Assembly: GCA_963664405.1 (NCBI GenBank)
Contig: OY761158.1
Location: 2,432,001-2,496,000, forward strand
Direction of reading: 5' to 3'
DNA length: 64,000 nucleotides
Source of the DNA: Thermoanaerobaculia bacterium
Lineage (GTDB): Bacteria > Acidobacteriota > Thermoanaerobaculia > Multivoradales > Multivoraceae
The position numbers were made by a program, and so were the translations under genes. This document shows, in pieces, positions 5,263-29,976 of this stretch (its first letter is position 1; each line of letters starts with the position of its first letter). The notes below the pieces were generated by a model that ran no database searches, was not told the DNA's origin, and was given only the letters and a program-made list of their open reading frames with translations.

Positions 5263-5301
5263 TGGACTCTCTGAGATCCATCAAACGGACGGAAAGCGCC
5301 A

Positions 5302-12671: not shown

Positions 12672-13394
12672 GAGAACAGACGCTGGTGGAGCGCGCTCTC
12701 GAGCGTTGGCCTTCTCATCAGCGATGTGCCGGAGGATCTTGGCGACAACTCGGGGGTCGAGGATGAAGGAGAGGGCGGCCCCGAGAGGATCCTCATCTGT
12801 GCGCCGCATCGACAGGTCAGCGGGTCGACCTCGTAGATCCGGCGGATCATCTGGGCCCAGGCTCGTCTTAGCCGACGACGCTCGGCAGCGGAGGGCAACA
12901 GGGTCGTCGCAGCACTGGCCTCGTCTTCCACTTTCTCGCCTCGCCGCCGCGCCCGTGCAACGCTCGAGTACTCGCCGTAGTAGCGCACCGTGTGAAGCTT
13001 CGGCTGAGGCCTAGGCGGCCCCGTCGTGCATCAGCAGACGGGCGAGGAAGTCCATCGCATCAAAGGTGGTCTGGGACCCACCGAATCGACCCCGGGCCTT
13101 GCGACGGTAGAGAACAGAGCCATCGGCGTCCAAGGACATCCGCTCGAGAATGAGCAGCGGACGAAGCAGGTAGCGAGCAAGCCGCTCGGTGCCCGCAGCA
13201 TCGTCCGCCCCCACGGTGACCGTGTTATGGACCGAGAATCCCTAGCCGGGCGCCCGGTGTTCTGCCAGGAGAGCAGCAGCTCGATCCGCTCCTCGCTCAG
13301 TAGCTCCTCGTCTCGCAGAAAGGCGATGACCTTGTGGCGAAAGAGAAGCTCAGCCGCCTTCGCGTCGACGTACGGCACGGGCACCCAAGTGCCC
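12672..13394 (-). pseudogene. IS91-family transposase, 3' fragment (copy A) with micro-insertions
   Basis: LARYLLRP, VRYYG, WAQMIRRIYEVDPLTC-x-CG, RAPP; near-identical to 28647-29357. Confidence 0.9.
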
Positions 13395-13410
13395 ATCGGG
13401 CTCTCCCAGA

Positions 13411-14008
13411 ATGAAGCGGTTGGCCGACGTGCCGCGGGTTCCCCTCGAAGTCGCCGCCACCGGTCCCCGGGTGATCGGCATCGCGGCGCGCCACGCGGAC
13501 AGGGTGATGTTCTCGCTCGGCGCCGACGCGGACCGCCTCGCCTGGGGCATCGAGGTCGCGCATCAAGCCCGGCGAGACGCGGGCCTCGACCCCGACGGAA
13601 TCAGCTTTGGTGCCTACCTGAGCTGCGCCACCCATCCCTCGCTCGACGTCGCCCGCGAGATGGTCCGAGGGGGTGTCACCACCCACGCTCGCTTCTCGGT
13701 GATGCACGGGCAGGTCGCGGGTCCGGTCTCGGAAGAGGAGCGCAAGGTCTTCGCCGACGTGCATGACCACTACGACATGAGGGCCCACACCCGCTCGGAC
13801 TCCCCGCAGGCGGCCTTCGTCACGCCGGAGTTCATCGAACGCTTCTCCATCGTCGGCTCCCCGGATCAGTGCATCGCTCGCTTCAGGGGGCTCGCCGAGA
13901 TCGGCATCTCGAAGGTCGTGCTGTCGGACGTCGACCGCGGAGCGGATGGGAGAGGCGAGGGCCTTGTTGGAAAGGGAGGCCCTTCCGTCGTTGGTCGGCG
14001 CCGAATAG
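13411..14008 (+). pseudogene. LLM-class oxidoreductase, C-terminal half, 5'-truncated at the IS91 copy and frameshifted near 13928
   Basis: AATGPR, HADRV, IVGSPDQC; the natural end LLEREALPSL is in a shifted frame. Confidence 0.75.
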
Positions 14009-14114
14009 TCGGACTCCTTCCCGTCCTTCGGATAGGGTGGGGGTTCCAGCAGAGGAGAGCGCGATGGTGTCAACGAGAGCGGCCGCCCTGGCGGTCATGG
14101 TTTCGACGAAGAGC

Positions 14115-14600
14115 TCGGGTCCCCGGAGATCGTGCCTCGCCCACCCAGCCGTTCCCCACCAAGCCGGCCGCCTACGATCGCCAGGGCGTTTCGGTGGACG
14201 ATCTGATCGATTTCACTGCTGAGCTGCGCCGACAGGCTCTGGAGATCACGGACGAGTACGAGCTGGCGTCGCTCTTTACACCGCCCCGACTCGAAGGCGA
14301 AGGCAAGCCGGTGATCCAGCTGCCGGCGGACAGTGGAGGCACCAACTGGACCCAGCGGCCCGAGAACACCAGCGGCGGCTCGTCCAGCGAGACGGACCTG
14401 CCGGCGGAGATCAGCGTCTACGACAAGAAGAGCGGCGCCTACCTCGGTGGCATCGAATTGCCCGATTCGCCCAACTCCGGCCTCGTCACCTATGAGGTCG
14501 GAGGGCGCCAGTATCTAGCGGTGAGTGTCGGCGGGGGGCGTTACATGTTCGGCGGCGGAGGCACTCCGCCACGAGTCGTGGCATTGGCGCTAGGCGTCCC
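14115..14600 (+). pseudogene. PQQ glucose-dehydrogenase-like fragment with internal deletion
   Basis: SPTQPFPTKP, DDLIDFT, LFTPP, GGTNW joined directly to C-terminal TYEVGGRQY. Confidence 0.75.
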
Positions 14601-14619
14601 CGGACCCTGCTCCTCGCCC

Positions 14620-14900
14620 TCGGCGCGCCCGGCGTCAGCGAGTACTCGTAGCCGATCATCGAAGTGAACTTGCCTGGCTCATTGTGCCGATCCGCTGCCT
14701 CGATCGTCTTCTTCCAGGCGTCCTCGATGACCGCGTGACCGAGAAGCGGATGGTTCTCCTGGATCAACTGTCCGACGCGGCATCGTTCCAGGAAATGCGC
14801 CGGCGGATTGAACGCTATCGCAGCAAGCCAGTCGACCCTCACGAGGACTACAACATCGGCTGTACTCTGCTTCGACAGCCTTTCTTTCTTTGATGAAGCC
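14620..14900 (-). pseudogene. DUF3604 internal fragment
   Basis: AWKKTIEAADRHNEPGKFTSMIGYEYS parallels AWQDTVEAADRHYRPGEFTTFAAYEYT in 60331-62109. Confidence 0.7.
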
Positions 14901-15271
14901 AGTTGGATCCCGGTACCGTCTGACTTTGCGCGCAACTGAGCCTAGTCACGCCGCGGGCTGAAGGACCTCCACGAATCTCAGATTCGGGTACGTCGAAGTG
15001 CACGTCTGAGGCCGTCCGGGACTAGGAAACCGAATCGCAAGTTTCTTCGATTCTTCTTCCGAATCCCCTTGACAAGCTTTTTCGGGCGCCTCGACGTCGA
15101 CTCTGATGTCGTGTCTGGAAGGGGCCGCAGAGCCACCAGATTCGCTTGTGTGGCGCGTTCGAGGAACAGCCGACAAGTTGTCTTGGATCGACCGGCGTTC
15201 GGCTCCGCACGAGGGCTTCAAGTCACTCAAAAAAAGGGGTTTATGATGGTTGGATCGACCTGGAGAGAACG

Positions 15272-16582
15272 ATGCGACCTGACATCTCAGCCCTATCGCC
15301 CAACCCGATTCCACCGATCCACGACTGCCCTGTCGAAGATCTCGGCGAGCAGATCGCCGAGCTCTCGGCACACATTCAGGCGGCCAACTACCGCCTCCTC
15401 ACCCTGATTCGCCAATTCGACGAGCGCGGCGGCTGGAATGTGGGCTTCGCCTCCTGTGCCCACTGGCTCAACTGGCGCACGGGTCTCGCTCTCGGGGCCG
15501 CACGCGAGAAGGTTCGCGTGGCCCATGCGCTGGGCGAGCTACCGCTTCTCAGTGAGTCGATGAGCCGAGGTGAGGTGTCGTACTCGAAGGTTCGTGCACT
15601 GACCCGGGTGGCTACGCCGGAGAACGAAGAGGAGCTCCTCGCCTTTGCTCGTTGTGGGAGTGCCTCCCATGTGGAGAGGCTGGTGCGAGCGTGGCGACGG
15701 GTCGATCGGATCGCGGACCAGGAGGAGGAGCAACGAAGGCACGCGAGCCGATCACTCGATGCCTTCTTCGACGAGGACGGCATGCTGGTGGTCCGCGGTC
15801 GTCTCGATGCCGAGGCGGGTGCCGTGGTGATGCGGGCTCTGGAGGCGGCTTCGGAAGCTCTCTACGAATCGACGGAAGAGAAGATCGAGATCCCCGCCGG
15901 TCAACGGCGGGCCGATGCGCTTCAGCTTCTCGCCGAAAGCGCGCTGGCGCACGAGCTCGACCGCGGCACTTCTGGCGACCGCTATCAGGTGGTCGTGCAC
16001 GTCGACGCCGAGACGCTGGCGGACGAGAAAGGCTCCGGCGTCTCGGTGCTCGAGGATGGGCAGCACGTTCCCGCGGGAACGTCTCAGCGCCTGGCCTGCG
16101 ACGCGGGCAAGGTGGTGGTTCGCCACGCTCGAGACGGCACGGTGCTCGACGTCGGGCGCAAAACGCGCACGATCTCACCCGCCATCCGCCGTGCATTGAA
16201 TACCCGGGACAAGATCTGCCGCTTTCCTGGCTGCCAATCGAAGTTCTGCGAGGCCCATCACGTCAAACACTGGGCGCAAGGTGGAGAAACTCGCCTCGAC
16301 AACCTGGTTCTACTGTGCCGGCGCCACCACCGAGCGGTTCATGAGGAAGGCTTTTCGATGAAGCTACTGGCTGATGGCGAGGTCTCTTTCTTCTGGCCTG
16401 ATGGGCGGCCGATGGCACAGGCGCCCTCGTTGCCCGCGCTGGCAGGTGAGCCTTTGGAGCTGCTGCTGCGCCTCCTCGAGCGACAGGGAATCAAGATCGA
16501 TGCGGAGAGCGGGCTTCCCGATTGGGATGGGGAGTCTTTCGATCTCGAGTGGGCGGTCGATGCTCTGCGATCGATCAATTGA
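15272..16582 (+). CDS. DUF222 / HNH endonuclease (13E12-repeat-like)
   Basis: SCAHWL, GEVSYSK, RLACD, RD-x-x-CRFPGC, HHV-x-HW...NLVLLCRRHH; GGAGAG RBS; TATGAT -10 at 15242. Confidence 0.9.
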   Translation: MRPDISALSPNPIPPIHDCPVEDLGEQIAELSAHIQAANYRLLTLIRQFDERGGWNVGFASCAHWLNWRTGLALGAAREKVRVAHALGELPLLSESMSRGEVSYSKVRALTRVATPENEEELLAFARCGSASHVERLVRAWRRVDRIADQEEEQRRHASRSLDAFFDEDGMLVVRGRLDAEAGAVVMRALEAASEALYESTEEKIEIPAGQRRADALQLLAESALAHELDRGTSGDRYQVVVHVDAETLADEKGSGVSVLEDGQHVPAGTSQRLACDAGKVVVRHARDGTVLDVGRKTRTISPAIRRALNTRDKICRFPGCQSKFCEAHHVKHWAQGGETRLDNLVLLCRRHHRAVHEEGFSMKLLADGEVSFFWPDGRPMAQAPSLPALAGEPLELLLRLLERQGIKIDAESGLPDWDGESFDLEWAVDALRSIN

Positions 16583-16664
16583 GGCAGGAGCTCTGATCTA
16601 CTTAGCCGGGCACCTGAGAAGCCGCGGGAGGCCGGGGTATCGTCCGCTCTGATAGGGTTTTGGC

Positions 16665-16865
16665 ATGAGTAGGGTAGACGAGTTGGAGCGGGCTGTTCGT
16701 GATCTGTCTCCCGAGGATCTCCGCCGATTCCGCGAGTGGTTTGTCGAGTTTGACGCCGAGCTCTGGGAACGTCAGCTTGAGCGCGACATCGATGCCGGCC
16801 GACTCGATCGTCTTGCCCAAGAGGCCCGGACCGAGCACCGTGAGGGGCGCACCCGGCCTCTGTGA
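16665..16865 (+). CDS. Small putative antitoxin
   Basis: 66 aa, LSPEDL..FREWF...W..Q...D..AGRLD, typical of partners of RelE/ParE-like toxins. Confidence 0.7.
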   Translation: MSRVDELERAVRDLSPEDLRRFREWFVEFDAELWERQLERDIDAGRLDRLAQEARTEHREGRTRPL

Positions 16866-16974
16866 CGACCTCCTCAAGGAAAACCCGCGGCATGCTTCGC
16901 TGCACTTCAAGAGGATTGGCCAACTCTGGTCCGCCCGAGTGGGGGCTCGCTATCGCGCTCTTGCCACGGTGGAA
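16862..16974 (+). pseudogene. RelE/ParE-like toxin remnant (both ends missing)
   Basis: LLKENPRHASLHFKRIGQLWSARVGARYRAL, in frame with the downstream esterase. Confidence 0.7.
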
Positions 16975-18480
16975 ATGAGAAGGACCCACGGTGTCGAGAA
17001 GGTCGTCGTTGTGCTGGTACTGACCCTGGCGCTCGCGACGGGCTCTCCGGGCGCGGCGGCCGACAACGCTGTCGGCAACGTCGTGCGGACCACTGCGGGG
17101 GAGGTGTCGGGATCGGCGGTGGAAGAAGGCGGCCGCACGGTGCGCATCTTCAAGGGGATCCCCTACGCGGCACCGCCGGTCGGAGAGCTGCGCTGGCGTC
17201 CGCCGCAGCCTCCATCGCCCTGGAAGGGCGTGCGCGACGCGACCGAATGGGCGCCGACGGCGCCTCAGCCCTCCTCCATGATGACAGCCGGGCACGTCAT
17301 CAGCGAAGACTGCCTCCACCTCAACGTCCTCACCGCGGCCCAGAGCACCGCCGATCGGCTCCCTGTGATGGTGTTCTTCCATGGGGGTGGCCTGACCTTG
17401 GGAACCGGCAATTTTGTGCTCTACAACCACACGGCTCTGCCCCGCAAAGGGGTGGTGGTTGTGACGGTGAACAGCCGGCTCGGTCCGATCGGGTACATGG
17501 CGCACCCGGCTCTGACGGCGGAGTCCGAGCACCAGGCGTCCGGAAACTACGGCACGCTGGACCTGATCGCCTCGCTGAAGTGGGTGCACAAGAACATCGT
17601 CGCCTTCGGGGGCGACCCCGACAACGTGCTCATCTTCGGTGAGTCGGGTGGCGGCACCAAGACGATGTCGCTCGTGACCTCACCGCTGGCGAAGGGTCTC
17701 TTTCACAAAGCCATCGTCGAGAGCGGGTCGGTGGTGGCCTCGCCGGAGCGCACCGCCACCCTCGAGGAGGCCGAGGAGGTGGGCGAGCGCATCGCCGCGA
17801 AGCTGGGCCTGGAGGGGAAGTCCGATGTCCTCGCCGCAATGCGCGCCGCGAGTTGGGAAGACATCGTCGCCGCGGAGTGGCAGAAGCGACCTGGAGCCCG
17901 CGGGTTGCCTGTTCCCTCAGACCTGGCCTACCGCGCCGACCTCACGGTCGATGGCTGGGTGCTGCCGGCGTCGGTGCACGACACGCTCCGACAGGGACAG
18001 CAGCACGACGTCCCTCTGATCGTCGGCGCCAACGAAGGGGAGCCGCGGGCTGCTACGGACGTTCCGCGCCTCGCGAACCTGATGAGTGCGACGGCGTCGT
18101 CGAAGACCTACGTCTACAATTTCTCGCATATGCCGAGGGCATGGCGCGATCTCGACTGCATCGCCTTCCACGGCGTGGAGCTGCCGTACGTCTTCGGCTA
18201 CGTTCCCGATGGGCTCACGCTGCCACTGATTCTCCGTCTCGCCAATCGCAACGGCTGCAAGTCGCGAGAGCCGGGAGCCGACGAAGTGGACGAGACGGTG
18301 GCCGACAACACCATGGAGATGTGGACGCAGTTCGCCAAGACGGGCGATCCCAGCGTGAAGGGCCTAGTCGAATGGCCTCCCTACACCGAGGAGTCCGATC
18401 GGTATCTGGACATCGGCTACGCGCTCGAGGTCAGGAAAGGGATCAAGAGCGCGTATGTAGCGTCTTCCGAGGCGCCGTAG
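16975..18480 (+). CDS. Carboxylesterase type B, secreted
   Basis: FKGIPYA, EDCL-x-LNV, HGGG, GESGG nucleophile motif, HG-x-EL. Confidence 0.93.
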   Translation: MRRTHGVEKVVVVLVLTLALATGSPGAAADNAVGNVVRTTAGEVSGSAVEEGGRTVRIFKGIPYAAPPVGELRWRPPQPPSPWKGVRDATEWAPTAPQPSSMMTAGHVISEDCLHLNVLTAAQSTADRLPVMVFFHGGGLTLGTGNFVLYNHTALPRKGVVVVTVNSRLGPIGYMAHPALTAESEHQASGNYGTLDLIASLKWVHKNIVAFGGDPDNVLIFGESGGGTKTMSLVTSPLAKGLFHKAIVESGSVVASPERTATLEEAEEVGERIAAKLGLEGKSDVLAAMRAASWEDIVAAEWQKRPGARGLPVPSDLAYRADLTVDGWVLPASVHDTLRQGQQHDVPLIVGANEGEPRAATDVPRLANLMSATASSKTYVYNFSHMPRAWRDLDCIAFHGVELPYVFGYVPDGLTLPLILRLANRNGCKSREPGADEVDETVADNTMEMWTQFAKTGDPSVKGLVEWPPYTEESDRYLDIGYALEVRKGIKSAYVASSEAP

Positions 18481-18533
18481 CGCGGAACCGGCCCTTCTTC
18501 ACGCCAGCCGTTGAAGATCCGCTCTCCCACCGA

Positions 18534-19457
18534 TCAATCAAACGCTGCATTGATTTCCTCATCCACACGCTGCAGATCTTCCACAGTGAAGAAGGTGGCT
18601 AAACACATCTCTTCGACCCCCGCATTCGCAAACTCCCCGATCAAATCGATGTGGAAGTCTCGTGATCCGACCGTCCTTGCCGGATTTTCCTGGAGGATTC
18701 GTTCCCGTTCCGCATCGGTTTCGGCAAGTCGCAAGGGGTAATGCACCGTCAGTTTGATCTCTGCCGGATCCCGGCCGATGTCTTCGCAATGTCGTTCGAG
18801 CACGCTGAGTTTGTGCTTAAACACCTCAACATCCATCCCTGCCCAACCGTTGAAATTCCAGATATCCCCATACCGCGCCAGGGTGCGTAGTGTGCGGCGC
18901 TCCCCGTTTCCCCCGATCATGATCGGGATACGGGGCTTCTGATAACAACCGGGGGCGAGTGGGGCCCGCTCCAGCCGATAGTACTTACCCTGGAAGTCGA
19001 CAGGCTCTTCTTGTGTAAAAAGCTTGGCGATCAATTCACACGCCTCCTCCAGCCGATCCTGCCGTTCGTGCATGGACGGGAAATCCCAACCATAGGCCTG
19101 GTGTTCCCGCTCGCACCAACCTGCTCCAATGCCCAGGGTGAAGCGGCCTTTAGAGGCCTGATCGAGTTCAGCAGCCATCTTGGCCACCAGGGCTGGATTG
19201 CGGTAAGGGTTGCCCAAGACCAAACTGCCCAGTTTGATCCGTTTCGTCATTCCTGCGACCACCGCGAGGGGGATAAAAGCTTCGTAGGCCGGGTTGAGTT
19301 CATCCTGATCAGCGGGAATGCCGCTCAGGGGGACAGGCGGAAGAAAGTGATCAGGAAACCAAATGCTGTTCCATCGCCCTGCTTCCATTGCCTGAATGTA
19401 GGCCTCCATCTCGTCCCATTGAGCCCGGTAGACCTTGAGTTGTGCACCAAATTTCAT
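18534..19457 (-). CDS. LLM-class (probably F420-dependent) oxidoreductase
   Basis: PDHF, YRNPALVAKMA, GR-x-x-LGIGAGW, IMIGGNGE-x-RTL; visibly more AT-rich than neighbours. Confidence 0.9.
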   Translation of the reverse strand: MKFGAQLKVYRAQWDEMEAYIQAMEAGRWNSIWFPDHFLPPVPLSGIPADQDELNPAYEAFIPLAVVAGMTKRIKLGSLVLGNPYRNPALVAKMAAELDQASKGRFTLGIGAGWCEREHQAYGWDFPSMHERQDRLEEACELIAKLFTQEEPVDFQGKYYRLERAPLAPGCYQKPRIPIMIGGNGERRTLRTLARYGDIWNFNGWAGMDVEVFKHKLSVLERHCEDIGRDPAEIKLTVHYPLRLAETDAERERILQENPARTVGSRDFHIDLIGEFANAGVEEMCLATFFTVEDLQRVDEEINAAFD

Positions 19458-19559
19458 AGTACTTCTTCCTATCACATTAATGACGGGTCTTGCCGTCTAC
19501 TGCCGAGCGGCCGCCCTGACCCGCGGCCCCGCCTCGCGTCTACGAGTAAACTCGGCAGG

Positions 19560-19934
19560 ATGGGCGGCAAGGATCCGATCGTCATCGTCGACTCTCACAT
19601 CGACCCTCTCGAGCTCGCTCGGCTGGTCGCTCTCTTCTTCGAGGACATGGTCAAGTACGTAGTCGACCTGGATCGCGGGATCGCGGCTGTGGGAGGTGAG
19701 CTTCACGCCGACGCCGAGTTGCTCCTCCTGGAGACAGGAAGCCTTCAGGACCATCTCTGGGGCGCCAACTACTACCCCGGTGAGGGCGAGGACGGTTGTA
19801 TCGAGTACACATCTCTCATCAACATCAGGCCATCCCAGGGGAATCCAAGTATGGAGGTCGAGGATCCTGCCATTCGGGAGGAGCTGAGAGAGCTGACCTT
19901 TACCTTACTCGGCCGCGGTGAGCCGCTGCCATGA
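19560..19934 (+). CDS. DUF5674-like protein
   Basis: MVKYVVD, GGELHADAE-x-LLLE-x-GS-x-Q-x-x-LWGAN, SLINIRP-x-QGN. Confidence 0.8.
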   Translation: MGGKDPIVIVDSHIDPLELARLVALFFEDMVKYVVDLDRGIAAVGGELHADAELLLLETGSLQDHLWGANYYPGEGEDGCIEYTSLINIRPSQGNPSMEVEDPAIREELRELTFTLLGRGEPLP

Positions 19935-20266
19935 GCCAGCACGACAGCCTGACCCTCGAGCGCTGGCTGCAATTCGACCGCGACCAACAGCTCCTGATGA
20001 TCGCCAACGAGATGCATCGAGGCACCAAGCTCCGGCGGCCCGAGGGAGCTCGTCGCTGCTACGAGCGAGTGTTGCGGCTGACCGACCTAACGGTGCAAGC
20101 CGCGGAGCGGGCGACGTTCCGGCGCGAGCTCCTGCGTTGGCGCGATCTGGTCGCCGAGCTCTGGCTGAGAGACGAGCCCGATCGCCAGCGACACCTCGAA
20201 GCCCTACGCTGCCTGCTGCTCTTCAGTCCCGAGACCGCGCGACAACGACCCTGGATCCTACGGTAG
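19931..20266 (+). CDS. Helical hypothetical protein, translationally coupled partner of DUF5674
   Basis: ATGA overlap; ERW...QLLMIANEMHR...CYERVL...RELLRWR. Confidence 0.7.
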   Translation: MSQHDSLTLERWLQFDRDQQLLMIANEMHRGTKLRRPEGARRCYERVLRLTDLTVQAAERATFRRELLRWRDLVAELWLRDEPDRQRHLEALRCLLLFSPETARQRPWILR

Positions 20267-21976: not shown

Positions 21977-22056
21977 CGGTCGCTCCGGAGGACACTTGAC
22001 GAGACGAGGGCCAGCGGCGGGCTCAGCGATTGAGGCACCACGATAGAATCCGACCT

Positions 22057-22299: not shown

Positions 22300-22877
22300 C
22301 CAGACTCGAGCGCGTTCTCCTTTCGTTGGCGAGGGATCTCGACCAGATCGGCGTCTCCTTTGCCCTGATCGGCGGGCTGGCGCTGTCCGTGCGCGCAGAG
22401 CCCAGGACCACCCGCGATGTCGACGTCGTTGTGACCGTCGAGAACGATCGAGAGGCTGAGGCGATCGTTGCCTCTCTTCGCGACGCCGGATATCGGGTCG
22501 GCGAGTTCCTCGAAGAAACGACGATGAATCGCCTGGCCACAGTCCGGCTGGTTGCTCCGGACGAAGAGGAGACCGGAGTCGTCGTCGATCTGCTCTTTTG
22601 CTCGTCAGGAATCGAGCCGGAGGTGGTCGCTGCGGCGGACTGGCTCGAGGTTTCGCCGGGGGTCGAGTTTCGGGTGGCGGCTCGTGGGCATCTTATTGCA
22701 CTGAAGGTGCTCGCAGCTCGCGATCAAGACCTTGTCGACGCCAAGACGTTGCTGCGCTTCGCTACGGAAGAGGACTTGGTGACGGCGCGGCAAGCTCTCG
22801 AGAGGATAGGCGAGCTGGGTCTCGATCGCGGAACAGATCTCCTCGAGTCTTTGGCTGAGCTCATGGCCGATCTATAG
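22296..22877 (+). CDS. Nucleotidyltransferase (AbiEii/AbiGii-like putative toxin)
   Basis: FALIGGLA, R-x-TRDVD, VVDLLF-x-SSGIE, LIALK...QD-x-x-D. Confidence 0.8.
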   Translation: MTRLERVLLSLARDLDQIGVSFALIGGLALSVRAEPRTTRDVDVVVTVENDREAEAIVASLRDAGYRVGEFLEETTMNRLATVRLVAPDEEETGVVVDLLFCSSGIEPEVVAAADWLEVSPGVEFRVAARGHLIALKVLAARDQDLVDAKTLLRFATEEDLVTARQALERIGELGLDRGTDLLESLAELMADL

Positions 22878-22941
22878 AGGCGATGCTCGACGCGGGTCCT
22901 CGACTCCCTGATCATCGTGCCCGATCTGGTCGCTGACCGGA

Positions 22942-24132
22942 TCAGTGAGGGCGAGCCTCGAGGTGTTGCCGCAGTAGGTCCTTACCGTAGTCATTGCCAT
23001 TGGGGGTGCGGATCACAACGTGAATGTGGTCGCGGGTGGGCCCTCGCTCCTTATTGATCAGCCGCGTGCCGACCGGGAACTGGTGATCGAACTCGATCAG
23101 GATGACCGGACTGTGAATCCGGTAGTAAAAGACGGCGGCGTCGCTCACTTCTCCGGCCCAGGCGAACCAGGTGTCGTCCAGTTGGGCCGCGACCTCCGCC
23201 ATCCGAACCTCGGCGTGACCCTCCCGCATATTTCCGACAAAGAGCCCGATGAGATCGAGGAGCTGGTCTTTTTGCACCGCCGAGAGCCGGCTCGCCGGAA
23301 GGCCCTGGTATGCGACTACGACGTTGTCCTTGTTGGCCTCGCCCTGGTTGTAGTTGCGCGACTTGCTCGAGGCAAGCGTCGCGGAGGCCTGTTGTTCAGA
23401 ATCGAGCGCCCGCATCATTGCCAGTCCCTGGTTCTGCTCTTGCTGCAGGATGTGATTACCGGCGTATTTACCGCTGGTGGCCTTCACCGGCTCGCCGCCG
23501 AGGAACACCGGGGTCATGACCACCTGGTCGCCGAGCACGAAGTAGTTGATGACCAGGTGATGCCCGTCTATCTGCCAACCCCAGGGCTCGGTTGTCGAAG
23601 GAAGACCCATCAGGGTGAAGAAGTAGAGATCTTCGTCATAGCTCAAGATGTCGTTGTTGATCTCGCGCAGGGTCTGGTCGGTCTTCATGATGTCGAGGCT
23701 GAGCTGTAGGCCTCTTGCACTGAGCGATTCACCCATCAGTGCCATCGCCGCCTCGCGCTGCTCGCCGCTCATCTCTTTGAGGCTGACACCCGCGCGCAGA
23801 AAGATGCCATTGTCGACGTTGGACCAGTGCCGCCACTCCGTATCTTGAACAGAAAAGACGGTGCGCAATGTCTGGTCCGGTCGCAGGCTGTGCAGGAAGC
23901 GGTCGGCGGCCTCGACCACCGGCTCGGTCGAGACGCCGGAAGCACGGATGGAGAACAGGCCGGGTTGAACCTCGCCGTCGTCGGTCACGCCGACGAAAGG
24001 CTCATTGAGCGCTTTCAGGGCCTGCTGGGCAAACATGTGCTTCACTCCCAGGGTGCGAGCGTCATAGTCACCCTGGGCGAATGCGGCTCCGCACAACAGA
24101 ACAGGGAGCAGGGTCTCCAGTCGAAATGTCAT
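22942..24132 (-). CDS. DUF3500 domain protein, secreted
   Basis: WSN, WGWQ-x-DGHHL, YYRIHSP, EFDH, HIH-x-V-x-RTPNGNDYG. Confidence 0.88.
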   Translation of the reverse strand: MTFRLETLLPVLLCGAAFAQGDYDARTLGVKHMFAQQALKALNEPFVGVTDDGEVQPGLFSIRASGVSTEPVVEAADRFLHSLRPDQTLRTVFSVQDTEWRHWSNVDNGIFLRAGVSLKEMSGEQREAAMALMGESLSARGLQLSLDIMKTDQTLREINNDILSYDEDLYFFTLMGLPSTTEPWGWQIDGHHLVINYFVLGDQVVMTPVFLGGEPVKATSGKYAGNHILQQEQNQGLAMMRALDSEQQASATLASSKSRNYNQGEANKDNVVVAYQGLPASRLSAVQKDQLLDLIGLFVGNMREGHAEVRMAEVAAQLDDTWFAWAGEVSDAAVFYYRIHSPVILIEFDHQFPVGTRLINKERGPTRDHIHVVIRTPNGNDYGKDLLRQHLEARPH

Positions 24133-24137
24133 CTCGG

Positions 24138-24245
24138 CTCGCCTCCGGAAGTGATTGCTATCACTTCCTGCGGCTCGTTGCTAATGGCGCCGAGGACGGC
24201 GCACTCGGGCGGCGGGCGGCGCTTCCTATTCGCTCCGGGAAACGG
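24138..24245 (+). repeat. Copy of the 40-bp palindrome plus REP-like tail repeat
   Basis: CTCGCCTCCGGAAGTGAT-TGCT-ATCACTTCCTGCGGCTCG then GGCGCCGAGGACGGCGCACT...CTTCCTATTCGCTCCGGGA. Confidence 0.85.
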
Positions 24246-24285
24246 CTCAGGGACCAGTACTCGGAGGGGGGAGCTGCCGCGCCCG

Positions 24286-25089
24286 TTAGCGAATGAACTT
24301 CAGGTTCGCGTAGCTATTCTCGTGGCCCATCCGGTCACTGGCGCCGGGAGCCCCACCATAGACCATGTAGTGGTGCGGGACCAGGACCCCGTCGACGGTG
24401 TGGAAGTCGGAAAGATGCATCGAGATTGACGCCGCCGGGACCATCTTGCGGTAGGTGAAGTACAGCCACTCCATCCGCTTCGAGGTCGGGTCGATGTAGA
24501 TGACGTACTGGTCATAGGTTTCGTTGGGCTCGGCCGAGCCCCAGGTCGCGTAGACCAGTTCGTAGGTCTTGCCCCCGACCTCGGCAGTGCCACCGTGGCC
24601 GATGAACTCTGCTTCGCTGATCCTGAACGGGAATTGGAACCACCAGTTCTTGACCGGCACCTTCACATGAGGGTCGGGGGCGTCTTTCGCAATGTGCTCG
24701 CCGTTCTTGATGTCGAAGTGCCGGCCATCGGCGAGGGCCCAGCCTTCACCCTTGGTCGGACCGTTGAGGAAGACCAGGTCGGCGTCGTCGGCGCCGAGTT
24801 GCAGAGCGGTGAAGTGAAACATCTGCGGATCTTCGGGCCATCCGCCCGCGGCTAAGCCTTCATCGCGGGCCGGGACGTACCACTTCGCCACCATGTCGAA
24901 CTCGGCCCCGCGGTAGCTCTTCCAGGCGTCGAGCCCGTAAGCCTTCTGCGCTTCATCGAGAAGAGCACGACCCTTGGTGGCTTCTTCGTCGGAGATGCCA
25001 TCGGCGACGGAGGCGGGTCGCACGTCCGATAGAGGTTGCCCACACACCGGAGCCGCAAGGGCAAGAGCGAGTATGGTTGGTTTCATCAT
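24286..25089 (-). CDS. Secreted hypothetical protein
   Basis: Signal peptide MMKPTILALAL, GGAGA RBS, A-x-G-x-x-AW, FPF, DQY-x-x-YID. Confidence 0.7.
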   Translation of the reverse strand: MMKPTILALALAAPVCGQPLSDVRPASVADGISDEEATKGRALLDEAQKAYGLDAWKSYRGAEFDMVAKWYVPARDEGLAAGGWPEDPQMFHFTALQLGADDADLVFLNGPTKGEGWALADGRHFDIKNGEHIAKDAPDPHVKVPVKNWWFQFPFRISEAEFIGHGGTAEVGGKTYELVYATWGSAEPNETYDQYVIYIDPTSKRMEWLYFTYRKMVPAASISMHLSDFHTVDGVLVPHHYMVYGGAPGASDRMGHENSYANLKFIR

Positions 25090-25126
25090 GGATCTCCTTC
25101 CGGTGAATCTGGGGTTTTTGACCGTC

Positions 25127-26074
25127 TCATTGTGAAGCGGCACCATGTTCCATAACGTCGATCGTCATCAAGTCGCTGCCGACCTCGAGCGGACCCGCAT
25201 ATGTGGTCCTGGTCCTGCGCACAAGATCCTCCACAGATGTGCGCGCGAGGACGATGTGGGTGTAGACTGCCAACGCTGGCTGGATTTTTGCGAAAAGACT
25301 ACCCGCGTCCTCCGGGCTGGTGTGGTGGCCCATGGGCCCTAGCGACGTCATGGCCGCGAGTAGATCGGGGTCGACCATCATGACCTCGTGGATGACAACG
25401 TTCGCACCCGACGCGTGACGCACTAGATTCGTGCTGGGTCGGGTATCGCCTGAAAGGACAACGGACCGGCCGCGGAAGTCAATACGGTAGCCAAACGCCG
25501 GCTTGATATGTTCCCCGTGATCCACGTCGAAGACCGTCACTCGAACCCCGTCTCGCTCGTACACGATGCCTTCGGTCACGTCCGCGGCGTCGATCGCTAT
25601 GCCGGACGTCGACAGGCCCTCCTCATTCGAGCGAATTCGAATATCAGCTTGGTGCGCTTGTTCCATGTGCGACATCATGTCTCGCGTTCCCGCTGGCCCG
25701 TAGATTCGAAACGCCGTGGTCCGGCGCCCGAATCCAGCCGGCATCCAGCCGGTCAACCAAAGGTCTGAGAGTCCGTTCACGTGGTCCGAGTGGAGATGGG
25801 TCAGAAAGACGGCGTTGATGTCGCTCAGCGGGACCCCTGCCTGAGTCAGGCGCACGGTGGCGCCTCGTCCGACATCGAAGAGGAGTCGTAGGTCACCCGC
25901 TTCCACAAGCGTGCTCGGGCCAAAGCGCTCGACGTTGGGGAAAGGCGAGCCGGTGCCAAGGAGCGTCACGCGGAAGCCGTCCCGCTCGGAGGACGTCTGC
26001 GCGAAGAGACTCCCCGGCAAGAACGCCAAGAGAGATATTCCAACGCTCAATAGGGTGTAGGTCGATTTCTTCAT
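25127..26074 (-). CDS. MBL-fold metallohydrolase (RNase Z/arylsulfatase-like) with signal peptide
   Basis: LLGTGSP, THLHSDH, SGDT, HE, HTS, YTH. Confidence 0.9.
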   Translation of the reverse strand: MKKSTYTLLSVGISLLAFLPGSLFAQTSSERDGFRVTLLGTGSPFPNVERFGPSTLVEAGDLRLLFDVGRGATVRLTQAGVPLSDINAVFLTHLHSDHVNGLSDLWLTGWMPAGFGRRTTAFRIYGPAGTRDMMSHMEQAHQADIRIRSNEEGLSTSGIAIDAADVTEGIVYERDGVRVTVFDVDHGEHIKPAFGYRIDFRGRSVVLSGDTRPSTNLVRHASGANVVIHEVMMVDPDLLAAMTSLGPMGHHTSPEDAGSLFAKIQPALAVYTHIVLARTSVEDLVRRTRTTYAGPLEVGSDLMTIDVMEHGAASQ

Positions 26075-26129
26075 GAATCTCCTTTGATGTTCGAGCTCGA
26101 ATTCTATTCTCTCCAAAAGGCCCGCCCGC

Positions 26130-27179
26130 TCAGGGCCTCACCCGTACGTACTTCTGCAACTTACGCGGATAGACCTCGCCAGCATAGATATTGCCTTCGC
26201 GATCCACTGTAACCGACTCTGCCCCGAACCCTCTGGCCACACGTGGGTCTCCACTCGGATACAAGATGAAAGCGCTGACCCAACCTTTAGCGGCATCACC
26301 GATGCGAATGCCGTACTCCCACCCAGGGTTCTTGATGTTATCCGAGGTCGAGTCCGCCACGTAGATGCGGTCTTGCTCATCGAAGAAGAGGCCACTGGGG
26401 CTGCCGAACTGCGTCCAAGTGGAGAGGTGTGCTCCCTCCTGGTCGAAGATCTGGATGCGGTTGTTGGAACGGTCGCCCACGAACACTCGACCACGGGAGT
26501 CGATGGTGATCGCGTGCAGGGTGCGGAACTCGCCTGGCGCGTAGCCCGTCCGTCCCCACGCCTTGATGAATTCGCCGTCCTTGGTGAACTTCACGACCCG
26601 GTTGTTGCCGTCGTCGTTGTGGCCATCGGCGACAAAGACATCACCGTTCTTCGCGACAACGACGTCACTCGGGGCGTTGAAGTGCGAGGTGTCATCGCCC
26701 ATTACCCCTGGGGTACCCAACCGCATCAAGACCTCGCCTTCGGGGCTGAATTTGATCACCTGATGTGCGCGCGTCCCCGGCGGAGTCGCGGCGGCCGAGA
26801 CCGCATCGGTCACCCAGACGTTTCCTTCCGGGTCGACATCGATCCCGTGCGGCCAGATGAAGAGCCCCCCTCCGAGGCCCGCAACGACATTACCCTCAGG
26901 ATCGAACTTGAGCACGGAATCGAGATCGGAGTCGAGACACTCCGTGCCAAAAGTCGCCTCAGCCTCGCACCTCACCACCGCCCAGATGTGACGGCCGTCG
27001 AGATCGACCGTCACCCCACCGAGCCTTCCCATCGGCCGCCCCTCCGGGTCCTTCGCCCAGCCTTCGACAATGCGATAGGGGTTCGGCAGAGCCTGCGCAA
27101 CGGCCTCTTCTGCGACACCGAGCGGGGCTAGGACCGCAAATGCGATCGACCCCACGACCCCATGGAACTTCCGCCGCAC
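26130..27179 (-). CDS. NHL-repeat protein (peptidyl-alpha-hydroxyglycine alpha-amidating lyase-like)
   Basis: PHGI-x-VD, WVTD, FVADG, NNRVVKF, DRSNNRIQIFD. Confidence 0.88.
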   Translation of the reverse strand: MRRKFHGVVGSIAFAVLAPLGVAEEAVAQALPNPYRIVEGWAKDPEGRPMGRLGGVTVDLDGRHIWAVVRCEAEATFGTECLDSDLDSVLKFDPEGNVVAGLGGGLFIWPHGIDVDPEGNVWVTDAVSAAATPPGTRAHQVIKFSPEGEVLMRLGTPGVMGDDTSHFNAPSDVVVAKNGDVFVADGHNDDGNNRVVKFTKDGEFIKAWGRTGYAPGEFRTLHAITIDSRGRVFVGDRSNNRIQIFDQEGAHLSTWTQFGSPSGLFFDEQDRIYVADSTSDNIKNPGWEYGIRIGDAAKGWVSAFILYPSGDPRVARGFGAESVTVDREGNIYAGEVYPRKLQKYVRVRP

Positions 27180-27183
27180 GTTC

Positions 27184-28101
27184 CTAGGCCACCGCGGCCG
27201 CGGCGATCTCCAAAGACTCACGGATTCCCGGCAGCGGATCCTCCGGCTGCTCCAGATGCTCCAGTGACAGGGCGCCGTCATCCGGGAACCCGACCTCGGC
27301 CAATGCGGCGAAGAACTCGGGAACGTCCAGGAATCCCTTGCCCAAGACGATGACGTCGCTATCCGGGTCGCGCCCGGACACGTCCTTGAGATGAATCCCG
27401 AAGACTCGATCGCCCAATCGCCGCAACGCCCCCGCGGGGTCCTCCGAACCTCGAATGGCGTTGCCCATGTCGAGGCAAGCACCCACATTGGGTCCCCTCC
27501 GGTCGATGGCTTTGACTACATCTGCGATTCGGTCGAAAGGCGAGCCCGGTGCGTTGTTGTGAATCGCCAGCCGGATTCCGTATTCGTCGGCGAGAGCCTC
27601 CAGACTGTCGATCGAGCTAGGCTCTGGGATGCAAGTCAGATTGCGGACTCCCAGATCCGCCGCGCGCGCGAAGAGATCCCGGTTCGAAGATTCGGTGCCC
27701 GATATCTGGATCGGCCCATATGCGGTCGGAGTGACATCCGCATTCGAGAGGAGTTCGCGCAGCTCCCGAATCTCGGCGGGTGTCGCCGCCGGACCTGCAA
27801 ACCGCCCCCTGGTCACTTCTCGGAGACGGATCTGGGCCAGCGTCAGTTCCAGCCAGTGGAGCCCGAGGTCCTCCACCGTCATGCGAACCGCTTCCGCCGT
27901 CGAAAAGCCGCGGAGGGACATTCCGTGGAGCCCCAGCGGGAGGCCCGCAAACCTCTCGCGGACCTGGTCACGGCCCGAAGCCCGCAACACCGGTGCGACA
28001 GCAAGGCTCGCCCCGGCACAAGCCGCGGCCCCCAGCAGACTACGCCGGCTCCATAGGCGATCCTCCACGCGCCTCGTATCCTGCTCGGTCGATTCGTTCA
28101 C
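27184..28101 (-). CDS. Sugar phosphate isomerase/epimerase (xylose-isomerase-like TIM barrel), Tat signal
   Basis: SRRSLL, AIHN, CLD-x-G, IHLKD, LSLE. Confidence 0.85.
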   Translation of the reverse strand: MNESTEQDTRRVEDRLWSRRSLLGAAACAGASLAVAPVLRASGRDQVRERFAGLPLGLHGMSLRGFSTAEAVRMTVEDLGLHWLELTLAQIRLREVTRGRFAGPAATPAEIRELRELLSNADVTPTAYGPIQISGTESSNRDLFARAADLGVRNLTCIPEPSSIDSLEALADEYGIRLAIHNNAPGSPFDRIADVVKAIDRRGPNVGACLDMGNAIRGSEDPAGALRRLGDRVFGIHLKDVSGRDPDSDVIVLGKGFLDVPEFFAALAEVGFPDDGALSLEHLEQPEDPLPGIRESLEIAAAAVA

Positions 28102-28213
28102 TGTCGTCCTCCGCAGCTCTTCGCAGAAGGGTTCACCTCTGGCGAACGGTGATGAGATCTTAACCCGGCGTCTCAACTGCGATAGCATCGCGCTGAGCGG
28201 AAGGGGGCTGCCG

Positions 28214-28385
28214 ATGTCTAAACGAAGAAGCGCTGCGATTCTGACCTCTCTCATCTTCGCCGCGGCCTCCGTGGTCGCGCAAGGGAGCCGCCCCGAGCTG
28301 GGCAGCGAAGCGCCGGACTTCACGCTCGAGAGCAGCTCGGGAGAAAAGTACTCGCTATCGCAGCTCAGGGGCGAGAAGAAAGGGA
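28214..28385 (+). pseudogene. Redoxin (AhpC/TSA-like) N-terminal remnant
   Basis: Signal peptide then G-x-x-APDFTL-x-S-x-x-G-x-x-YSLS-x-LRGEK; similarity stops before the active site. Confidence 0.65.
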
Positions 28386-28646
28386 TAGGGATTTCCTTTT
28401 CAGGGCCACCGATCGAATCGCGCTGGCCGAGCGTGGCCGAGCGTTAGAAGGGTGGACATCGGTGGGTGATGCATAGTTCGAGGCTCTCCGAACAATGAGA
28501 TCAGCCGGGGGTCGCGCCGCCGTGACGGAGGTCGACGCCTTGGGCTGCTGACTCGTCTGAGCAGGAGCACAGCTCCGCCGGCCCGTGATCGGGATCAGTC
28601 CACTGGGCTGGAACTCGTGCCCGTCGTCGCCGGTCGGTCAAGAGGC

Positions 28647-29976
28647 GAGAACAGACGCTGGTGGAGCGCGCTCTCGAGCGTTGGCCTTCTCATCAGCGAT
28701 GTGCCGGAGGATCTTGGCGACAACTCGGGGGTCGAGGATGAAGGCCTAGGGCGGCCCCGAGAGGATCCTCATCTGTGCGCCGCATCGACAGGTCAGCGGG
28801 TCGACCTCGTAGATCCGGCGGATCATCTGGGCCCAGGCTCGTCTTAGCCGACGACGCTCGGCAGCGGAGGGCAACACGGTCGTCGCAGCACTGGCCTCGT
28901 CTTCCACTTTCTCGCCTCGCCGCCGCGCGTGTGCAACGCTCGAGTACTCGCCGTAGTAGCGCACCGTGTGAAGCTTCGGCTGAGGGATGTGCATCAGCAG
29001 ACGGGCGAGGAAGTCCATCGCATCAAAGGTGGTCTGGGACCCACCGAATCGACCCCGGGCCTTGCGACGGTAGAGAACAGAGCCATCGGCGTCCAAGGAC
29101 ATCCGCTCGAGACTGAGCGGCGGACGAAGCAGGTAGCGAGCAAGCCGCTCGGTGCCCGCAGCATCGTCCGCCCCCACGGTGACCGTGCTATGGACCGAGA
29201 ATCCCTAGCCGGGCGCCCGGTGTTCTGCCAGGAGAGCAGCAGCTCGATCCGCTCCTCGCTCAGTAGCTCCTCGTCTCGCAGAAGGGCGATGACCTTGTGG
29301 CGAAAGAGAAGCTCAGCCGCCTTCGCGTCGACGTACGGCACGGGCACCCAAGTGCCCTCGCCATCCCACCCGCCACGAGAAACCAGCCCGTGAACGTGGG
29401 GGCTCCACTCCAGAAGATCCGTTGCCGTCTGAACAACGCTCACCATCCCGGGCCGAATGCCTCGATCGTCGGCGTGCGCCGCGGCGATCAGCTCATGCAC
29501 CGTCTCCCAAGCCGCCTGCGACAGCTTGCCCAGTAGCTCTCTGTGATGGAGGAAGTAGGGCCGGAGCAGCTTGGGGATGGTGAAAACCCACTGTGCATGG
29601 CCGACGTCTTCGAGGATCTCCTCGTGGAGCAGCGCACCAAAGACCGCCGCTCGCTTGGCGGCGCACGAGGGACAGAAGACCCGGCGACTACAGGAGAAGG
29701 CCACCAGGTAGTCTGAGCGACACTCGTCGCAGTAGACCCGAGCAAATCCACCCTCGAAGTCGCCGCAGGCCTGGAACGCGAGAACGACCTCGTCCATGAA
29801 CCCACGCCTAGCCGGCCGCGCCAGAAACCGTAGGACCGCTCGAAGCGCTCCTCCCAGCAGCCCTTGACGCGCTCGTAGAGCTCGTCCACAAGCCGATACA
29901 AAGGCGACTCTCGTGGCCGACGAGGCCGATAAAGCGCGGCGCATGCGTCCAGAAGCAGGGACCTCCCTGCTTCCAA
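28647..29976 (-). pseudogene. IS91-family (HUH/Y2) transposase, near full length (copy B), broken by micro-insertions
   Basis: YRPR, zinc-binding C..CDEC..SC-x-x-R-x-FCPSC, WVFTIPK, PHVH HUH motif, LARY-x-x-RP. Confidence 0.92.

Follow-up and report, generated by a model that had tools for sequence, protein, structure and literature searches.

Four breaks in an IS91-like pseudogene are single periods of a 14-nt CTAG-anchored repeat family

What breaks the reading frame of one dead transposase gene several times over, each time with a short insert built around CTAG? The window analysed here, a stretch of 64 kb, belongs to a genome, G000, that has three copies of an IS91-like gene. Copy B (28650..29976, (-) strand) is a full-length, putative IS91-family (Y2 HUH) transposase pseudogene with the breaks E1, E3 and E4; copy A (12650..13394, (-) strand) keeps just a 3' part of it, shares 96.5% identity with copy B, and carries a variant of E1 together with E2 and E3; copy C, located by a copy search of the genome at genome positions 5264-6003, is another 3' fragment. 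The gene is matched by tblastn to 29 related loci and to an intact relative of 373 amino acids (L013); the family name follows the earlier note and motif recognition, and Cys-rich CxxC motifs were seen by eye in the ORF.

Four derived insertions in the IS91-like gene

Inserts E1, E3 and E4 are 14 nt long, and E2 is 16 nt in place of 3. The copy alignment and the L013 ORF place the E1 unit, CCTAGGGCGGCCCC, at 28745..28758 of copy B; it is shared with copy C, its junction has 0 nt of microhomology, and it puts a TAG into the reading frame of the IS91 gene. Copy A alone has, by the same alignment, a 13-nt variant, AGAGGGCGGCCCC, in which CTAG is lost; the earlier note was right that a variant occupies this site, but it spans 12770..12782, not 12774-12787. 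E2, CCTAGGCGGCCCCGTC, replaces GAT at 13010..13025 of copy A (net +13) and is also seen in copy C when the copies are aligned; copy B is without it and has the ancestral GAT at 28986-28988. E3, CTAGCCGGGCGCCC, is found in all three copies (13242..13255 in copy A, 29205..29218 in copy B), with a junction ambiguity of 2 nt. E4, CCTAGCCGGCCGCG, lies at 29807..29820 of copy B, between flanks with the 4-nt repeat CGCC; its site is visible in copy B alone, and copies A and C stop short of it. Apart from TC at the E2 junction, each insert consists of CTAG and a tail made only of G and C. All of them break the reading frame, and two supply an in-frame TAG. The common orientation ascribed to them in the earlier note holds for the palindromic CTAG only: compared with the canonical unit defined below, E1 and E2 have their 10-mers in forward orientation, E3 and E4 in reverse.

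Intact or near relatives are free of the inserted bases, which bears out the proposal that the breaks are stereotyped short insertions. The uninterrupted L013 ORF, which copy B, itself in ORF pieces, matches in two frames (tblastn), reads WQNSGFSVH at the E3 site, LLMHIPQPK at the E2 site and RILAFILDP at the E1 site; copy B has the same LLMHIPQPK at E2. At the E4 site, L016 and L018 have continuous YGFWRG/YGFWRS. Homologues in G007 and G003 lack exactly the 14 nt of E3 and of E4, respectively, and no such units were seen in 29.3 kb of IS91 homologues scanned in other genomes. The ancestral IS91 sites have no CTAG, so the inserts brought their own, as the earlier note held, and at least E2 arose after the copies diverged, in line with its view that insertion went on after duplication.

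The same note had called for a check against raw data. In public runs from four studies, contigs read across E1, E3 and E4, identical or with 1-nt variants, and the E2-bearing copy is there too; E1 is spanned in runs X1 and X2 and is one letter shorter in X8 and X9, and the E2-bearing contigs come from X1 and X9. The inserts are therefore not assembly errors. CTAG is depleted in this genome (7502 observed vs 23230 expected), so chance does not account for four inserts of one size that all bear it. All four breaks are true, derived insertions.

A 14-nt repeat family in distant bacteria

Each of the IS91 breaks is a single period of a repeat family, which we define by a 14-nt period of CTAG and a GC-only 10-mer, with GGCTAGGCGCCCCC as the canonical unit. 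This 14-base repeat unit seems not to have been described before. Its alleles are two or three substitutions apart, by G/C swaps, with changes to A in insert E6 and in the tandem unit. Many bacteria have the family in their intergenic DNA, both as solitary units and in perfect tandem arrays of 2-7 units. Two IS91 inserts match units of such arrays in genomes of the same order: E3 is exactly the array unit of G030:C10 and G058:C45, and E4, read in CTAG phase, is that of G030:C20. A MITE-2-like copy at genome position 1025621 holds an insert with the same letters as the E4 14-mer, and the E3 14-mer recurs at 5409643. The E2 14-mer has 3 mismatches to the canonical unit and occurs 6 times in G104. 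E1 is the weakest member; it needs a 1-nt shift relative to E2 and has 6 mismatches if aligned ungapped. The recurrence of the same 14-mers, both at unrelated sites and as units of arrays elsewhere, fits the templated origin that the earlier note had listed among its options.

Junction ambiguity is 0 nt at E1, 1 at E6, 2 at E3, E8 and E9, 4 at E4 and 11 at the event at 3129743, and host bases were deleted at E2 (-3/+16) and at E5, which lies in a MITE-1 copy (net +13). No target duplication of fixed length was found at the junctions, and no flanking motif is common to the insertion sites; this variable ambiguity and the deletions at E2 and E5 led us to reject a transposon with target-site duplication. 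Folding of the arrays and of the four inserts with their flanks gave z-scores from -0.5 to +1.5 against shuffled sequences, i.e., no hairpin beyond composition. Six events were found independently of the CTAG criterion, E1-E4 from the frame breaks and E5 and E6 from self-alignment, and in all six CTAG lies 0-2 nt from one end of the insert.

Exact canonical units number 41 in G030 (many of them in tandem), 31 in G026 and 4 in G037, with 0-1 in the reversed control. At least 120 stretches, drawn from four or more phyla, have two canonical units in tandem, and their flanks are unrelated; the records are labelled Pseudomonadota, Bacteroidota, Acidobacteriota and Bdellovibrio-type bacteria. An array-bearing genome has 5-14 units at 2-7 loci (control, 0-1). 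Several arrays are located at contig ends. Among the matches listed, 59 of 121 arrays start exactly at the unit start. The arrays are polar: one end is mostly in fixed phase, and the other is a partial unit of 1-9 nt. Such partial units carry array totals beyond a whole number of periods, as would be expected from a few bases in common between target and unit. Comparison of the genes near 120 array loci, again among the matches listed, revealed no linked or conserved gene and no reverse transcriptase (RT), and a search of 2.9 million viral contigs gave 0 matches. The PF05635 gene is present in G000 and was not found in G026, G030 or G037, despite their 31, 41 and 4 units.

Within G000 the canonical GGCTAGGCGCCCCC occurs in three MITE/REPIN families: in at least 24 of 242 full copies of MITE-1, in two copies of MITE-2 and in one of MITE-3, and 7 of 61 MITE-3 loops have an extra 14 nt. 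The sole tandem pair (5062106) is of an allele other than E1-E4, and no donor array of the E1-E4 alleles was found in present-day G000. Outside the MITE copies there are 52 sites with family-like 14-mers vs 17-69 for shuffled 10-mers, i.e., no enrichment; the four IS91 hits in 1.3 kb are therefore unexplained by genome-wide abundance. These units may date from another time or have been picked up in a different host.

Origin of the single units

We give a probability of roughly 0.5 to the reading in which neutral DNA received one period of the repeat, by copying or capture, through a microhomology-tolerant process. The source would be an existing repeat, either an array in the cell or incoming DNA, and the route would be template switching during replication or repair, or else end joining. 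The period inserted in this way may be in any phase, homology at the junction being 0-4 nt (once 11 nt), with occasional small deletions. In G000 the single units would have landed in tolerant DNA, namely the dead IS91 copies and three small non-coding repeat families, and later spread or decayed together with their carriers. Ku is present in G000; it was not found in G030, which is rich in arrays and 98% complete, or in G164 or the fragmented MAG G167, completeness being given for G030 alone, so Ku-dependent end joining is not the general route. The E1 junction, with no microhomology at all, speaks against a microhomology route; the proximity of CTAG to an insert end in all six events is not predicted by free choice of phase; and template switching or capture leaves the letter-identity across distant phyla unexplained.

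That identity would suit a horizontal mover, and the 14-nt unit could be a minimal mobile element, a 'nano-transposon', acted upon in trans by an enzyme that cuts at or next to CTAG, such as a CTAG-specific DDE transposase (IS5/IS1182/IS630 type) or a Y1 HUH/RAYT-like protein. The position of CTAG close to one end in the six events, the start of about half of the listed arrays at the unit start, and the presence in G000 of CTAG-targeting IS1182-like elements, MITEs and 13 Y1_Tnp-like genes are in its favour. We nevertheless consider it unlikely, given that there is no target duplication or common flanking motif, that both orientations are seen, that sites suffered deletions at E2 and E5, that no gene is linked to the 120 listed array loci and no hairpin exceeds composition, that a family-like unit (up to 3 mismatches) lies within 500 nt of just one of the 13 Y1 genes, and that CTAG-CTAG spacing in G000 has no peak at 14. 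Polarity of the arrays, with one fixed phase and one partial unit, resembles the alignment-then-template-boundary cycle of telomerase, and each unit has a G-rich strand with a run of five G. A portable polymerase with a built-in template, either an RT with a short RNA template (telomerase-like) or a polymerase making a rolling copy of a tiny circle, might add units to DNA ends before the other end of the break is joined, and the single IS91 units would be its shortest products. Exact identity across phyla and low copy number fit a transferable template, and G000 has 12 RVT_1 matches, though its RTs are probably mostly group II intron types. No RT or conserved gene near the arrays, no template locus and no viral match came to light in our searches, and the IS91 units are full periods in different phases, unlike end-primed synthesis; this explanation is distinctly unlikely.

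The footprint of a CTAG-ended element was another suggestion of the earlier note, which set a similar-sized unit at 1913..1929 beside the inserts. That unit is no micro-insertion but the left end of an IS1182-derived MITE ((+) strand), CTAG followed by GAGTCTGCG. Of nine solo GAGTCTGCG ends genome-wide, seven lead into the same MITE body and two (1380952 and 2093615) do not. A full IS1182-like element, with ends GAGTCTGCG and CGCAGACTC and CTAG on either side, occupies 53597..55150 on the (+) strand, within the central CTAG of a MITE-3 copy. Imprecise excision of such a CTAG-targeting IS or MITE is made conceivable by the role of CTAG as target and duplication of MITE-1 and the IS1182-like element in G000, by the REPIN-like MITE-2, which adjoins CTAG and has ends beginning CCGGCCG... 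right after it, resembling E4, and by a unit in G026 that forms the tip of a MITE-like repeat and has an inverted partner in two cases. Excision of an IS5/IS1182-type element needs two flanking CTAGs, however, and each insert has one, at a site that had none. The E1-E4 tails match neither GAGTCTGCG nor the MITE-1 end, and the inserts resemble none of the IS ends identified in G000; target duplication is missing, CTAG-N10-CTAG is not in excess in G000, slippage would not give a constant 14 nt, and tandem arrays exist in phyla where these MITEs were not seen. Excision is thus largely refuted and highly improbable. Barely tenable is a defence by which the host would scar mobile genes with stops or frameshifts. 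It would account for four frame-breaking hits within 1.3 kb of one transposase gene, two with in-frame TAG, and at least three units would stop all six frames; the same units, however, lie in non-coding MITEs and intergenic DNA of G000 and of many phyla, the 29.3 kb of homologous IS91 genes scanned elsewhere are without them, and self-alignment of G000 shows no such indels in other IS families. Frameshift-like inserts make up 6 of 307 CTAG+GC-run sites (2.0%), the background level. Purifying selection predicts that units survive only where the DNA is dispensable, and 35% of the candidate CTAG+GC sites are in non-coding DNA.

Known repeats and significance

The small dispersed repeats (SDRs) of cyanobacteria are reportedly palindromic, 21-27 nt long and limited to that group, and are said to be noncoding insertions inside repeats, IS elements and intergenic DNA, rarely in genes. 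The 14-nt family is likewise made of very short noncoding insertions in repeats, IS and intergenic DNA; the 14-nt unit is, however, shorter, forms no hairpin, and occurs in perfect tandem arrays identical across several phyla. SDRs are cited as 'very small mobile repeated elements' (Elhai et al. 2008, Genome Res 18:1484) in PMC3116915. Intergenic direct repeats of the heptamer TAACTGA are recorded in Beggiatoaceae, cyanobacteria and Bacteroidetes (PMC4679880), and others common to Xanthomonas and Nostoc (PMC4692102). As characterised in these sources, heptamer repeats resemble the 14-nt family in being short, intergenic and direct, with variable unit number, distant host lineages and a G-rich strand; they differ in a period of 7, not 14 with two dissimilar halves, and our family has a low load of 2-7 loci per genome and single units documented as insertions in a gene and in MITEs. 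The Xanthomonas/Nostoc motif is said to be GGGNATC.

REP/REPIN elements, mobilised by RAYT transposases according to PMC3116915 and PMC3733652, share, as outlined there, a tetranucleotide tag before a GC-rich sequence, extragenic location and many copies. We rejected REP/REPIN identity, as the 14-nt unit is too short, has no palindrome or hairpin, does not flank Y1 genes (1/13) and occurs in tandem and across phyla, unlike REPs, which are usually described as lineage-specific. Interstitial telomeric repeats of eukaryotes are inserted at repaired breaks, and here too one or a few units of a tandem repeat stand at internal sites without target duplication; in contrast to that system, no telomerase-like enzyme or template was found here, nor do we know of one for this unit, and the G000 chromosome was assembled as a single contig.

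Neither descent nor chance can account for identity over 14 bases among Pseudomonas, Burkholderia, Dyadobacter, Bdellovibrio and marine Acidobacteriota. It points to unrecognised copying of very short DNA from site to site and from genome to genome, or to templated synthesis new to bacteria. In practice, the units break genes and contigs, and annotation pipelines will call frameshifts. The IS91 relic is valuable in that four independent single-unit events can each be read cleanly before and after insertion, and these give the insertion rules: one period, any orientation, no duplication, and little or no homology. A portable activity common to many phyla, which writes one set 14-nt sequence, once or as a tandem, into the chromosome where DNA is broken or a fork has stalled, is an unlikely but more far-reaching idea. 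In bacteria it would correspond to the making of interstitial repeats by telomerase, or it would be a 'DNA stamp' with protein or RNA as template; the relic would then be a record of four writing events, and the unit, which in three or more copies closes six frames, might also be selfish or serve as an insulating punctuation mark.

Short inserts in three copies of an IS91-like transposase gene

The genome that contains the window (G000:C1:2432001-2496000) is a single 6.78-Mb contig with a GC content of ~63%, in which CTAG is strongly avoided (7502 occurrences observed, 23230 expected). Its IS91-like transposase gene is present in three copies, all on the minus strand: copy B, which is full length (window ~28650-29976), and copies A (window ~12650-13394) and C (genome positions 5264-6003), which are 3' fragments and 96.5-97.6% identical to copy B. 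In ORF lists the gene is split into pieces across different frames. Three-way alignment of the copies gives the positions and distribution of four short inserts, E1-E4, written here as on the plus strand. E1, CCTAGGGCGGCCCC (28745-28758), is found in copies B and C, and has in copy A a 13-nt variant, AGAGGGCGGCCCC (12770-12782), from which CTAG is lost. E2, CCTAGGCGGCCCCGTC (13010-13025), replaces GAT in copies A and C and is absent from B, so at least one event is younger than the divergence of the copies, and activity after duplication, as had been proposed, is upheld. E3, CTAGCCGGGCGCCC (13242-13255 and 29205-29218), occurs in all three copies, and E4, CCTAGCCGGCCGCG (29807-29820), in copy B only, A and C ending short of the site. 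E1, E3 and E4 are exactly 14 nt long; E2 adds a net 13 nt, three host bases having been removed. E1 and E2 introduce an in-frame TAG; the effect of E3 and E4 is limited to a frameshift. Each insert carries one CTAG and the host sites in the IS91-like gene have none, which bears out the earlier note on this point.

Comparison with relatives shows E1-E4 to be insertions. The 14 nt of E3, no more and no fewer, are missing from the copy of the gene in one related genome (G007), and likewise the 14 nt of E4 from that in another (G003); an unbroken 373-aa ORF at locus L013, with 82% identity to the query piece, runs across the sites of E3, E2 and E1, and loci L016 and L018 read through the site of E4 uninterrupted. 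Parts of the window are contained in 20 public sequencing runs from 12 studies, and contigs from four runs, each belonging to a different study, were aligned to it. They span E1, E3 and E4, the E2-bearing copy appears in them as 13 extra letters at 28986-28988, and none among the matches listed lacks a whole insert. The inserts are real because these contigs carry them, and an assembly artefact is ruled out also by the presence of E1 and E3 in all three copies. Stereotyped insertions breaking the IS91 frame are thus confirmed by copy alignment, by relatives without the inserts and, in public data, by the contigs of runs from four studies.

In other populations, represented by the public runs X8 and X9, E1 is one letter shorter (window 28748), with CTAG destroyed, and E4 in X8 has one additional G (window 29810). 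The losses of CTAG from E1 in X8, X9 and copy A fit the general avoidance of this tetranucleotide in the genome. Other kinds of interruption are seen in homologues of the gene. Relative to copy B, the one at locus L002 (G003:C381:3987-7362, ~1100-2400) has at least five other insertions (~18, 20, 21, 63 and 68 nt), none with CTAG, one of which resembles an arm of the MITE-1 repeat described below (CTGCCGGCGTT); IS91 relics of this bacterial family may often carry small insertions. The homologue from a Holophagae MAG (L016, 2575-4143) is split by a gene whose IS200/RAYT-like product has an NHYHM motif.

A 14-nt repeat family within and beyond the genome

Self-alignment of the genome reveals, among the matches listed, 9-14-nt indels of the same make as the IS91 inserts in other repeats. 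Three abundant small non-coding families, MITE-1, MITE-2 and MITE-3, occur genome-wide (e.g., G000:C1:2246480-2246660), and the window has such repeats around 1879-2045 and 53560-53596. MITE-1 is 179 bp long, with inverted ends ACCAGCGTTTCCAAAGTTCG and CTAG on both sides; at least 24 of its 242 full-length copies contain an insert of GGCTAGGCGCCCCC (event E5, net gain 13 nt) that is absent from the rest. This 14-mer, a CTAG followed by ten G/C-only letters, is taken here as the canonical unit. MITE-3, located by its arms ATCATTTCCTCC and TGGCGCCGAGGAC in 61 copies, has a central loop of 14 nt in 32 copies; in 7 others the loop is lengthened to 28 nt by CTAGGCGCGCCCCA or a version of it with CTGG. 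MITE-2 is REPIN-like, ~125 bp, with arms GCCGGCCGTCCAGGGCACCCCA, sometimes in tandem; its left end nearly always directly follows CTAG, and copies usually begin next to a CTAG or a stop codon. Two MITE-2 copies contain GGCTAGGCGCCCCC, and the 14-mer of E4, CCTAGCCGGCCGCG, is found in a MITE-2-like copy at 1025621. The E3 14-mer recurs at 5409643, directly past a stop codon, and at 5062106-5062134 two CTAGCCGGCCGCAC units in tandem adjoin a third, related one. Since identical 14-mers stand at unrelated sites, the inserts are copies of something, not random filler.

CTAG is its own reverse complement, so that a unit in either orientation reads as CTAG followed by G/C, and direction can be told only from the asymmetric 10-mer. 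By this measure E2 runs in the direction of the canonical unit (forward) and E3 and E4 run against it (reverse), and the claim that all inserts share one orientation therefore fails; E1 is forward only through a likeness to E2 shifted by 1 nt, its ungapped comparison tying at 6 mismatches both ways. Nor is the sequence at 1913-1929, put forward as a similar-sized unit, a member of the family: an IS1182-like element of the window has given rise to a MITE, and this is the normal left end of that MITE. The element lies at 53597-55150 with CTAG on both sides, and the central CTAG of MITE-3 serves it as a landing site. The genome has 9 such solo left ends, followed in 7 cases by the same MITE body; in the copy at 1913-1929 the bases past GAGTCTGCG have diverged and now read CTAG.

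Among 41 relatives, exact GGCTAGGCGCCCCC is counted 41 times in G030, 31 in G026, 4 in G037 and once each in G007 and G027, alongside 26 in the source genome, and is absent from the other 35; the reversed control gives 0-1 per genome. In G030 many units form perfect tandems with a 14-nt period, frequently at the ends of contigs, and the units interrupt a local MITE at a point flanked by TCCGA and GGCTA. The unit of G026 is the leading part of a composite intergenic repeat, with an inverted partner in two cases. When 151 genomes of the order were scanned for the pattern CTAG-S10-CTAG-S10-CTAG, arrays (perfect tandems of units) were found in G030, G058, G104 and G110 only, and their units include CTAGCCGGGCGCCC, which is E3 exactly, and CTAGCCGGCCGCGC, which is E4 read from its own CTAG. 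G104 has 6 occurrences of the E2 14-mer, whose counts elsewhere are those expected by chance.

Two exact canonical units in tandem (28 nt) are found in at least 120 stretches in a collection of species-representative genomes. The source organisms include, per the records, Pseudomonas, Stutzerimonas, Azotobacter, Halomonas, Haliea, Burkholderia, Paraburkholderia, Achromobacter, Comamonas, Thauera, Undibacterium, Dyadobacter, Cyclobacteriaceae, Marinoscillum, Cryomorphaceae, Bdellovibrio, Bacteriovoracaceae, Acanthopleuribacteraceae and other Acidobacteriota. The 121 arrays contain 2-7 perfect units, 59 of them starting exactly at a unit start and most ending in a partial unit; five genomes checked whole have 5-14 units at 2-7 loci, compared with 0-1 for the control. 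Array flanks are unrelated, except in local repeat families and at orthologous loci, such as one shared by four Burkholderia-type genomes. In these four species (L080, L133, L150 and L178) an array of 2-6 units lies ~60 nt upstream of the start of a glyoxalase I-like gene; it has either been retained since an early date or changed in size repeatedly. At L098 (~3170-3290, Pseudomonas borbori) and L177, two units lie within a GTAG-tagged REP palindrome, with ATCGCGGGCATG before and GCCGCTCCTAC after them, so that here, too, the unit has inserted into a repeat already in place.

Footprints, targets and linked genes

The inserts had been read as possible footprints of a CTAG-ended element after excision, a reading spoken against by the single CTAG per insert, the absence of duplicated host bases at the inserts and the lack of a peak in CTAG-CTAG spacing in the genome (14 pairs at distance 14, and 10-14 at neighbouring distances); CTAG-N10-CTAG footprints are rejected on this flat histogram. 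The unit fails both the IS-footprint test and the test for a transposon with target duplication. A codon-usage score trained on long ORFs was applied to 307 sites of CTAG followed by at least 8 G/C, to find those with coding flanks on one strand whose frames differ. The frames differed as they would after a 14-nt insert at 6 sites (2.0%), compared with 1.4% of 6000 random positions and 2.3% of 7197 other CTAGs, so that frameshifting units genome-wide are rejected. With frameshift-like sites at the background rate and 35% of the 307 sites non-coding (12% of random positions), the idea of scars aimed at mobile genes is not borne out either. IS91 as a general target is rejected on 29.3 kb of homologues from other genomes, where none of three pattern matches is a unit insertion: two overlap in L016, where the coding sequence naturally reads WRGL, and the third is at a gene end in L026.

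Clustering of 3938 ORFs near 120 array loci gave no conserved gene within 3.5 kb of the arrays, and a linked gene is rejected; the widest family, at 7 loci, consists of generic response regulators, and the others are syntenic Burkholderia genes. No Rfam family was found on arrays in 10 loci checked, no hairpin beyond composition in arrays and inserts, and no match in an exact pattern scan of viral contigs. A 6-unit array searched by BLAST against plasmids and phages had no match, a result without weight since low-complexity filtering may have masked the query. Inverted matches of at least 7 nt flank 7.5% of 107 arrays and 11.4% of 490 controls, and insertion at hairpin centres is accordingly rejected. 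Ku is present in the source genome and was not found in array-rich G030, nor in G164 or G167, which speaks against Ku-dependent NHEJ as a general route. In the source genome 13 intact ORFs, 300-440 aa long, match Y1_Tnp (IS200/RAYT-like) weakly (e.g., 6395045-6395956 and 2207920-2208831), several of which share conserved flanks containing GGTGCCACCC; these genes may be the RAYTs that serve the REPIN-like repeats. RAYT flanks contain no units and are rejected as their home. Two genes of the PF05635 family (23S rRNA intervening-sequence protein) lie 3.6 kb apart at G000:C1:2947324-2947641 and 2950945-2951247, the second with an internal TAA; the unit shows no correlation with this S23p/IVS family.

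Origin of the inserts

The small dispersed repeats of cyanobacteria (Elhai et al. 2008) are reportedly 21-27 nt long. Such repeats (cited in PMC3116915) and the heptamer repeats described in intergenic regions across phyla (PMC4679880, PMC4692102) are the nearest described things to the 14-nt unit. Unlike REP/REPIN, the unit has no palindrome and does not adjoin Y1 genes. The 14-mer, in six of its full rotations, was in no paper of a search mostly outside subscription journals; among the matches listed, 11-mers led to cDNA, primer or unrelated studies, and 14-bp repeats with CTAG to nothing relevant. The earlier interpretation stands in part. The IS91 breaks belong to a widespread 14-nt repeat family, apparently undescribed in the literature searched.

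We infer that the inserts arose by microhomology-tolerant copying or capture of one period from an existing repeat. A nascent strand would slip onto an array, copy any whole number of periods and then switch back to its own template, which would explain inserts of exactly 14 nt in any phase; alternatively, a repeat fragment would be end-joined. Junction ambiguity is 4 nt in E4 (CGCC at both sides), 2 nt in E3 and in E8 and E9, events outside IS91, 1 nt in E6, likewise outside, 0 nt in E1, and 11 nt in a MITE-3 copy at 3129743. Two bolder explanations, a nano-element mobilised in trans and cut at CTAG, and a portable activity of templated synthesis, are both kept alive because CTAG lies 0-2 nt from an insert end in 6/6 events identified without CTAG as a criterion, and because the unit is letter-identical across phyla.

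As for the source of the copied period, the genome today has no array of the E1-E4 alleles, and its family-like 14-mers beyond MITE copies are not enriched (52, compared with 17-69 for shuffled controls). The IS91 relic has four inserts in 1.3 kb, compared with none in the 29.3 kb of homologues elsewhere, and may have acquired them at a different time or in a different host.
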